Part shown: in pieces, positions 23,349-23,510 of the stretch
How positions within the stretch are numbered: position 1 is the stretch's first letter
How the letters are laid out: each line of letters begins with the position of its first letter
NCBI GenBank assembly: GCA_048538235.1
Contig: JBLYPX010000001.1
Coordinates: forward strand, 456,013 to 520,012
Direction: 5' to 3'
DNA length: 64,000 bases
From: Candidatus Komeilibacteria bacterium
GTDB taxonomy: Bacteria > Patescibacteriota > Patescibacteriia > UBA1558
Position numbers and translations under genes: made by a program
Notes under the pieces: generated by a model
Told to the model about the DNA's origin: nothing
Databases searched by the model: none
The model's input: the letters and a program-made list of their open reading frames with translations, nothing else

Positions 23349-23510
23349 AAAGAAAAACTGCCAGACATATATCATAAGAGCGGTGTGTACAAGGTCGTTT
23401 ACCTTTTCGCCTACTAAGAACGACCCTCTTATGGTTGCTTTAAGCAACAAATACATGTCTGGCAGGGCCTACGCAATGATGAGCACGCCACCTCTCATCT
23501 CGTACTAACA
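23349..23510 (-). promoter_or_regulatory. Structured 5' leader: 15-bp inverted repeat enclosing an ~85-nt multi-hairpin core, followed by a U-run and then a strong SD (candidate riboswitch/attenuator, or a miniature inverted-repeat element)
   Basis: On the minus strand, CUGCCAGACAUGUAU ...[GUUGC-UUAAA-GCAAC; AUAAGAG-[GGUCGUU...AACGACC]-...CUCUUAU]... AUAUAUGUCUGGCAG UUUUUCUUU. An extra upstream hairpin GAUGAG...CUCAUC. A TTGACA -35-like box further upstream. GC-rich compared with neighbouring DNA. Confidence 0.45.

Follow-up and report, generated by a model that had tools for sequence, protein, structure and literature searches.

What kind of RNA stands in front of the gene for a small membrane protein in Candidatus Komeilibacteria, and what might that RNA respond to? 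The question is raised by a stretch of 64,000 nucleotides from contig JBLYPX010000001.1 (the whole stretch is called the window here), in which an earlier note had proposed a transcription-attenuating riboswitch or else a miniature inverted-repeat transposable element (MITE). The RNA is about 150 nt long, was previously uncatalogued and precedes a gene for a membrane protein of the HsmA family (hsmA) in a few Candidatus Komeilibacteria. The comparison with related genomes showed it to be a new, selected and structured RNA, and in five of the six lineages that carry it, it is the leader of hsmA. Of the readings considered, a cis-acting attenuating leader that would be read by a macromolecular factor ranks first, at somewhat less than an even chance.

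A structured RNA upstream of hsmA

Syntenic contigs were gathered by means of homologues of HsmA and of the protein of the neighbouring ricT/PSP1 gene, and the identities given in brackets for contigs are those of PSP1 to the protein of the window. The RNA and hsmA occur together in the window, L002/L003 (91%), L004/L005 (84%), L053/L054 (83%) and L041 (75%), and the RNA occurs without hsmA in L042 (78%). These six lineages of one Komeilibacteria subclade make up the known sample of the RNA.

All the elements that the earlier note had listed (the TTGACA box, the GAUGAG/CUCAUC hairpin, the 15-bp repeat, P2, P3 with its inner stem, the Shine-Dalgarno sequence (SD) and the ATG) were found on the minus strand (Table 1), which is fixed as the RNA strand because G-U pairs occur only in that reading. 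The minimum free energy fold of 23320-23530 is the proposed architecture (-64.6 kcal/mol, z = -3.5 against dinucleotide shuffles). The 15-nt inverted repeat is 93% complementary as DNA and pairs throughout as RNA, with one G-U, to form the helix P1, which closes a tight three-way junction with near-zero unpaired junction nucleotides; the segment UUGUACACACCG of P3 is left as an unpaired bulge. The claim that the region is GC-rich was also borne out, since the GC content of the leader is 0.43 as compared with about 0.29-0.33 in the adjacent intergenic and upstream sequence.

The same structure is preserved in the related genomes. In the three closest lineages 98.9% of the cells pair and six pairs are changed on both sides. 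The five-sequence alignment is fitted to the model and thus biased towards structure; in it 97.5% of the cells are paired and 23 of 50 pairs are changed on both sides. The observed pairing and covariation values were reached by none of 500 shuffles, and slid-partner controls gave only 2-5 pairs with changes on both sides. The covariation check that had been proposed for this locus is therefore answered in favour of the fold. In five lineages, P1 is paired in 74 of 75 cells with changes on both sides at 5 of its 15 positions, and P2 is paired in every cell with such changes in four of six pairs, its stem being wholly replaced in L053 (ACUACU/AGUAGU). The outer helix of P3 is changed on both sides in five of eight pairs, and L004 presents a C-G to U-A change in the inner helix as well as a compensatory A-U to G-C change in the 5' hairpin. 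This last hairpin is conserved in four lineages, L042 included; L053 and L041 present other hairpins instead. The UAA triloop of P2 is the invariant unpaired element in all six lineages. Its closing U-A and C-G pairs are unchanged in five of them, while L041 keeps the loop-proximal U-A and has U-A in place of the next C-G.

With covariance model R1, L053 scores 95 bits and L042 scores 75. L041 is divergent: model R2 aligns only its P2 and apical hairpin (E = 0.002), and its fold retains the P1/P2/P3 plan with a large insertion. In a manual core alignment that includes L041 the paired cells are 87 of 90 for P1, 36 of 36 for P2 and 43 of 44 for P3. Moreover, the leaders of the three closest lineages are 83-87% identical, as against 63-69% at synonymous third positions of hsmA and 62-68% in the spacer upstream of the promoter, so that the leader is under purifying selection.

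The conserved block of the RNA begins about 7 nt past a putative -10 element, at ACGAG (23503). The -35 box TTGACA is kept in five of the six lineages, L002 having TTCGACA, and a -10 element (TAAATT, TAAAGT or TACTAT) lies 16-17 nt beyond it in four of the lineages with TTGACA. The -10 element of the window (TAATTT) is too weak for the promoter to be called by the consensus scan. Further upstream, a terminator-like hairpin after ricT/PSP1 probably isolates the leader and hsmA from upstream transcription; with only two G-C pairs it was not called by the terminator consensus scan, and a terminator-like hairpin with a T-run stands ahead of the promoter in the relatives too. From this hairpin, together with the called terminator after hsmA, the leader and the gene are predicted to be a monocistronic unit, and there is no space for a second promoter. 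What had first been seen as a structured minus-strand RNA in the 5' leader of a membrane-protein gene is thus upheld, with compensatory changes and an arrangement of helix and U-tract that is terminator-like.

None of the 4227 families of Rfam 15 was found at gathering thresholds in the window, none relevant at E<=10 in 23200-23700 and none in eight related loci, so the Rfam/Infernal check gave no known RNA or riboswitch class; the entire 64-kb window likewise holds no tRNA or tmRNA gene. No other copy of the inverted repeat exists in the 64 kb, with up to three mismatches, beyond chance-level matches, and models R1 and R2 find one copy only. Since the element is single-copy and occupies the same locus in relatives, the search for dispersed copies refuted the MITE alternative. 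A coding N-terminal extension of hsmA (in-frame ATG at 23456, 162-aa open reading frame (ORF)) was rejected as well, the upstream frame being closed after 3-30 codons in the relatives.

The product of the downstream gene had been guessed to be an ion or small-molecule channel. This guess gives way to the HsmA family, since the ORF scores 93.5 bits against NCBIfam TIGR03987 ('HsmA family protein'), for which the cut-off is 78.2. A 100% identical NCBI protein of that name comes from a Candidatus Komeilibacteria metagenome-assembled genome, and the start codon in the window agrees with the 118-aa gene calls in relatives. The four-helix membrane protein with an HHINGH loop described earlier was recognised in the four hydrophobic segments and the loop, and residues H62 and H76 are invariant among eight homologues. 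In Clostridioides difficile, HsmA is a heme-sequestering membrane protein which is conditionally induced under the control of the heme-sensing MarR-type regulator HsmR (PMC12541388). The protein of the window resembles it in its score above the family cut-off, its four transmembrane segments and its invariant histidines. However, whereas C. difficile hsmA is regulated by HsmR (PMC12541388), no hsmR-like gene adjoins the gene in the window and an RNA leader is in the regulatory position. Heme binding is known for the C. difficile protein (PMC12541388) and is putative for this homologue from the candidate phyla radiation (CPR).

Ribosomal RNA copies and the boxA-like block

Two parts of the RNA are exact copies of ribosomal RNA (rRNA), as compared with the transcribed strand of the E. 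coli rrnH operon (L008), an E. coli sequence and not the host's own rRNA. The sequence AGUAGCGGCGAGCGAA of L004 and L053 equals 23S positions 241-256 (16 nt exact, E 2e-4) and is extended by CGGG in L002 to positions 241-260 (20 nt exact, E 9e-7). The second, CCUUGUACACACCGC(CC), corresponds to 16S positions 1388-1402/1404, with 15 nt exact in the window and L004 (E 8e-4) and 17 nt exact, CCUUGUACACACCGCCC, in L002 (1388-1404, E 5e-5). In the subgroup to which the window belongs, the bulge of P3 equals 16S positions 1390-1402. Neither the 15-mer nor the 16-mer was found elsewhere in the 64-kb window. The 23S copy caps the P3 arm with an AGUA/GAA S-turn-type loop and a GGCGA-capped mini-stem, and the helix that closes it covaries (CCUU/AAGG, UUCU/GGGA, CUUC/GAGG). 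Since L041 flips an internal C-G of its apical hairpin (GGGGCGACC) to G-C, the hairpin structure itself is under selection. The rRNA modules remain constant while the surrounding stems covary. Segment 241-260 of the large-subunit rRNA is near-universal and is the helix-13 hairpin (E. coli numbering); the 16-mer also appears in papers on eukaryotic 28S rRNA work. Positions 261-269 of 23S are placed between H13 and H14 (table in PMC2441807).

Other likenesses to rRNA were considered and rejected. The 5' strand of P1 and P2 (23434-23475, minus strand) align with E. coli 23S 1034-1078, the GTPase-associated centre hairpin around A1067; the alignment reaches p ~0.01 in the window alone, lacks significance in L004 and L042, and is not claimed. 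A likeness to the sarcin-ricin loop (UAGUACGAGA, 23S 2653-2662) was taken as a chance match, seen in the window only at E ~0.8 and not conserved in L002 or L004. By eye the 5' hairpin also resembles 23S 45-80, but local alignment did not recover this. A divergent 5S rRNA was suggested by the three-way junction, the length of about 110 nt and the AGUA/GAA loop, but the arms differ in order and lengths and RF00001 did not match at E<=10. Nor is the element an rRNA gene or pseudogene: no extended collinear similarity to 16S, 23S or 5S rRNA was found, only the two patches of 15-20 nt in non-native order, and no Rfam rRNA model matched.

These patches, the inverted repeat that bounds the element and its presence or absence among relatives could be explained by something without function: rRNA gene fragments in decay, a MITE, or rRNA reads joined chimerically into the assembly. 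This explanation is largely refuted and hardly credible: the element is single-copy, assemblies made independently (NCBI, JGI, ENA and Logan) agree on its arrangement, its pairs carry the compensatory changes given above, it is conserved beyond synonymous sites, the Rfam rRNA models do not match it, and the order of 23S piece, 16S piece and boxA is unlike that of an rrn operon.

Leaders that mimic rRNA are normally those by which ribosomal proteins regulate their own synthesis, as in the L1, S8, S15 and L20 leaders. The leader of hsmA is similar to these in presenting a copy of an rRNA element, the 23S 241-260 hairpin, with conserved sequence and a covarying closing helix. It differs from them in three respects, since it matches rRNA exactly over 16-20 nt where they mimic its structure loosely, a second module copies 16S rRNA, and the downstream gene belongs to the HsmA family and not to the ribosomal proteins, so that the autoregulatory logic is missing. 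The RNA may be a dedicated rRNA mimic. Its exact 23S 241-260 and 16S 1388-1402 elements, set on a stable scaffold, would then allow it to detect or titrate some factor directed at the ribosome, such as a ribotoxin, an antibiotic that binds rRNA, or a protein that assists assembly or binds rRNA, and in cis this signal would be coupled to expression of a protective heme-binding membrane protein. We regard this as rather unlikely; if true, rRNA mimicry outside ribosomal-protein autoregulation would be a principle new to bacterial leader RNAs.

The third conserved part is the 13-mer UUUUCUUUAACAA, which directly follows P1 and is invariant in all five hsmA-linked lineages, while the spacer between it and the SD varies. 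It is absent in L042, and because it was lost there together with hsmA it is tied to that gene. The U-run that had been called terminator-like is present and is one part of this invariant block. In the window the base of P1 (C-G, U-A, G-C, C-G, C-G) runs into U5CU3, and a G+C-rich stem with a U-run is likewise found in the four other lineages, the common pattern of the hsmA-linked lineages being a G+C-rich helix base followed by U4-8CU3.

The 13-mer also contains UCUUUAACAA, the core of the boxA of the E. coli rrn operons, with an identity of 10-12 nt overall; L041 shares 12 nt with it (TCTTTAACAATT). The consensus GYTCTTTAANA (PMC5725501), which is gamma-proteobacterial and may not be that of the host, is matched at 10 of 11 positions about 20 nt before the ATG. 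Besides the leader, exact copies of the 10-mer TCTTTAACAA stand at 223-232, 25010-25019 and 54597-54606, all on the plus strand, and with at most one mismatch it occurs 39 times on both strands of the window against 17.4 expected from shuffles, which may be due to codon or dipeptide bias. A hairpin between the U-tract and the SD is predicted in all five hsmA-linked lineages (-3.7 to -6.6 kcal/mol); this modelled pairing is weak evidence, since pairing with a purine-rich SD is to be expected of any tract rich in U.

The boxA of E. coli suhB is situated 6 nt from the SD; it recruits Nus factors, and it represses translation (PMC5725501). The leader is like suhB in having a boxA-like UCUUUAACAA a few nt upstream of the SD, like the lambda nutL/N leader in that a large structured domain adjoins a boxA-like sequence, and like the rrn operons in its looped-out domain closed by a long stem. 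It is unlike the boxA leaders in that the boxA-like sequence is downstream of the structure and overlaps the U-tract, in that the gene is one for a membrane protein, where theirs are for Nus factors, translation or rRNA, and in that the candidate motif is common in this AT-rich genome. The leader seems likest to the boxA-containing leaders (suhB, lambda N) and to the rRNA-mimic leaders of ribosomal proteins, yet it would belong to neither class, because the boxA match is imperfect and statistically weak and because the downstream gene is not that of a ribosomal protein.

Readings of the leader

According to the reading ranked first, the RNA would have a conserved promoter of its own, from which a monocistronic hsmA mRNA would be made with the RNA as its 5' leader. 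The pre-folded junction would let P1 zip up, and P1 with the U-tract would then act like an intrinsic terminator. In the transcripts that read through, the pyrimidine tract may pair with the SD, or may be a boxA-like site beside it as in suhB. Expression of hsmA would then be low by default, given termination at P1 and the U-tract and either masking of the SD or the boxA-like site. An action in cis is suggested by the juxtaposition of P1 and the U-tract, by the presence of the 13-mer only where hsmA follows and by the fact that hsmA has no promoter besides that of the leader. Among the unpaired parts, conservation is highest in the rRNA copies and the boxA-like 13-mer, a kind of feature that is read by proteins, and they point to recognition by a macromolecule. 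The signal would most likely be such a macromolecule, for instance an rRNA-binding protein or NusB-S10, with the rRNA-like modules or the 13-mer as its target; a small metabolite would be less likely.

Several observations weigh against this reading. No alternative, anti-terminator fold was found, and the complementarities to P1 of 5-6 nt are at chance level. P1 is not a compact terminator hairpin, since it encloses a branched domain of 78 nt and is not called by the same terminator scan that calls the terminator of hsmA. The boxA-like sequence has U at consensus position 1, where G is expected, and the 10-mer occurs four times in an AT-rich window, so that the match is statistically weak. In addition, the rRNA modules are not universal in the RNA family: the 23S copy of the window (AGUAGGCGAA) is short by 6-7 nt and L042 has a plain hairpin instead, and the 16S copy is invariant in only three of the six lineages (the window, L002 and L004); L053 (UAGUACUAACGA) and L042 have diverged from it, and in L041 it can no longer be recognised. 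Moreover rRNA mimicry normally regulates ribosomal-protein genes and not a membrane protein, and the known distribution is narrow, with a sample of six lineages from one subclade. Finally, the RNA of L042 is intact and well paired (z = -5.1) without hsmA, which fits a function independent of the gene.

This last case leads to the main rival, which is unlikely but deserves serious consideration: a stable, stand-alone small RNA of about 150 nt that would act as rRNA mimic or decoy for a ribosome-directed factor, co-transcribed with hsmA and freed by termination at P1 and the U-tract or by processing. L042 has kept the promoter, the 5' hairpin, P1, P2 and P3 fully paired and followed by a canonical terminator despite the deletion of hsmA. 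A long and perfect P1 is typical of stable noncoding RNAs and not of switches, the exact rRNA copies are maintained under selection, and the patchy presence among close relatives resembles that of accessory functions. L042 is, however, a single case. The sequence after its P1 joins the apparent last codons of hsmA and the terminator (GGUAAUCACUAAGGC as compared with GGUAUUCCUAAAGC), which suggests that hsmA was lost by a microhomology deletion (ACGG/GCGG) fusing P1 to the hsmA terminator, and such an event could be recent. Besides, the RNA is physically the leader of hsmA in the other five lineages, and no second or unlinked copy was found in the pattern scans or covariance-model scans that were run.

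The riboswitch of the earlier note can be weighed against the same data. In it the three-way junction or the P3 bulge would bind a small molecule or ion, plausibly one linked to what HsmA does, for example heme or a metal, and the stabilised P1 would terminate transcription before hsmA. The proposal stands as far as a conserved and covarying structure right upstream of a membrane-protein gene is concerned, with helix, U-tract and SD in a GC-rich leader that has no protein-coding potential; as in terminating riboswitches, P1 closes a domain of several stems in the 5' leader, with a U-tract after the last helix and the SD nearby. It falls short in having no Rfam class, a variable putative pocket and no conserved competing fold. 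The P3 bulge and the apical domain differ among L053, L042, L041 and the group of the window, the bulge being UUGUACACACCG, UAGUACUAACGA, a 24-nt sequence or a large insertion according to the lineage, and the UAA triloop alone is invariant. Unlike in terminating riboswitches, P1 here doubles as the terminator stem, and with 15 bp it would form without any ligand, no anti-terminator is evident and the residues of the putative pocket are unconserved. The narrow distribution, the absence of the RNA before more distant hsmA genes and its retention in L042 without the gene also speak against it. A metabolite riboswitch is thus not favoured, because P1 is very stable, the junction is near gapless and the bulge and apical domain vary, and we consider it quite unlikely. 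Two further pairings, a pseudoknot of the 5' hairpin loop with the 16S-like bulge and one of P1 with 'anti-P1' segments of the 5' domain, were rejected as they offer complementarities of only 4-6 bp, expected by chance.

The arrangement could also be that of a constitutive processing module built after the rrn operons, in which P1 stacked on P3 would be an RNase III-type stem that excises the domain, so that the mature hsmA mRNA would start near the boxA-like sequence and nothing would be sensed. A comparable arrangement is that of the boxA and RNase III stem of the lambda N leader and of the rrn operons (partly discussed in PMC5725501). The perfect 15-bp duplex coaxial with P3, the looped-out rRNA-like domain with closing stem and boxA, and the boxA-like 13-mer are consistent with such a module. 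It would leave the conservation of the internal modules unexplained, 15 bp is short for RNase III and the boxA match is weak; we judge it very unlikely.

Distribution and neighbourhood of the locus

The collected contigs share the order rpsB-tsf-pyrH-ricT-[...]-gap. Neither the RNA nor hsmA is present in L049-L052 (81%), L055 (90%, partial) and L046 (66%), and L043 (63%) has another gene in the slot. In this last contig (L043:3399-4433) a gene of 344 aa resembling oxidoreductases that use flavin adenine dinucleotide or pyridine nucleotides takes the place of the RNA and hsmA between ricT and gap. The slot appears to be a variable insertion point, used in L043 for another redox-related gene. 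Conservation upstream of orthologous genes, by which the earlier note would have its proposal judged, holds in the five hsmA-linked lineages and fails before more distant hsmA genes: with both models and filters off, no RNA was found at those of L006 (58% protein identity), L007 (51%) and L001, in a Saccharibacteria genome (46%).

The RNA-hsmA cassette is flanked by two similar terminator-promoter modules, TTTTTTATTTGACAAAA... and TTTTTTTATTTAGCTAAAAAAGCTATAAT (23531-23550 and 22915-22945 of the window, minus strand), and close relatives without the cassette (L055:2560-2640; L049-52) have one such module between ricT and gap. This suggests that the cassette was gained or lost by recombination between the module repeats. 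In L042 (1949-2014) a 16-bp hairpin (ACCCCGUUACAAAUU...AAUUUGUAACGGGGU) ends within the start codon of gap, and none comparable precedes gap in the window. A metagenome scan with the pattern TTGTACACACCGN{10,40}CTTTAACAA yielded nothing but genuine 16S genes, which have CTTTAACAA in the tip of h44, and chance matches; it missed L002, so that the collection is incomplete and says little on distribution. A scan of viral contigs for the 23S and 16S mosaic found none.

In Bacillus subtilis the Ric complex assists RNase Y in the maturation of the cggR-gapA mRNA, and in view of this role the conserved adjacency of ricT and gap may be meaningful. Downstream of gap, the window contains an ORF of 79 aa (21613-21852, minus strand) with a LiaF-TM-like N-terminus (weak Pfam matches) and a Cys/His-rich tail, CCGKGSRCCKDDEGKGHGHCCDHGEDKE; the relatives have an ORF of comparable length at that position. 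The coordinates of the locus are given in Table 1.

Table 1. Features of the leader RNA, of hsmA and of the flanking genes in the window, listed in the direction of transcription.
Feature	Position	Strand	Description
ricT	23585-24406	-	PSP1/YaaT family (NF041131, 220 bits); directly upstream of the RNA-hsmA cassette
Terminator-like hairpin of ricT/PSP1	23541-23565	-	Putative; CACUAU-UUAGGU-AUAGUG, then G U6 A U3
Promoter-like site	23510-23538	-	Putative; -35 TTGACA (23538-23533), 17-nt spacer, -10 TAATTT (23515-23510)
5' domain	23471-23503	-	Hairpin GAUGAG-AGGUGGCGUG-CUCAUC (23499-23478) with ACG...CGU flanks
P1 5' strand	23451-23465	-	CUGCCAGACAUGUAU; half of the inverted repeat
P2 hairpin	23434-23448	-	GUUGCU-UAA-AGCAAC
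P3 arm	23373-23433	-	Outer helix, inner helix, apical hairpin and 3' bulge
P3 outer helix	23433-23426 / 23380-23373	-	CAUAAGAG/CUCUUAUG
P3 inner helix	23425-23419 / 23399-23393	-	GGUCGUU/AACGACC
Apical hairpin	23402-23418	-	CUU-AGUAGGCGAA-AAG; shortened copy of the 23S rRNA hairpin
16S rRNA copy	23380-23394	-	CCUUGUACACACCGC; mostly unpaired, as the 12-nt 3' bulge that separates inner and outer P3 helices
P1 3' strand	23358-23372	-	AUAUAUGUCUGGCAG; G+C-rich base touches the U-tract
Post-P1 block	23344-23357	-	UUUUUCUUUAACAA; its 3' 13 nt are UUUUCUUUAACAA; includes the U-tract UUUUUCUUU (23357-23349)
SD and start codon	23322-23340	-	SD GAGGAGG (23340-23334); ATG (23324-23322)
hsmA	22968-23324	-	118-aa four-helix membrane protein of the HsmA family (TIGR03987)
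Intrinsic terminator of hsmA	22941-22964	-	AAAGUCGGGC-AAAU-GUCCGACUUU, then U-run; called by the scan; gap promoter next
gap	21875-22885	-	Directly downstream of the RNA-hsmA cassette

To our knowledge very few regulatory RNAs have been described in the CPR/Patescibacteria. The new RNA family is well supported by the sequences compared, with strong covariation from only five or six of them and a clear genetic context. Its content is unusual, as it carries verbatim copies of two of the most-conserved rRNA segments and a boxA-like sequence beside the SD, which raises the question of what reads these modules outside the ribosome. Should they not be functional, the family still documents the building of rRNA fragments into a selected RNA scaffold. 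If they are functional, rRNA mimicry and control of the Nus/boxA type would reach a non-translational membrane-protein gene in an uncultivated phylum.

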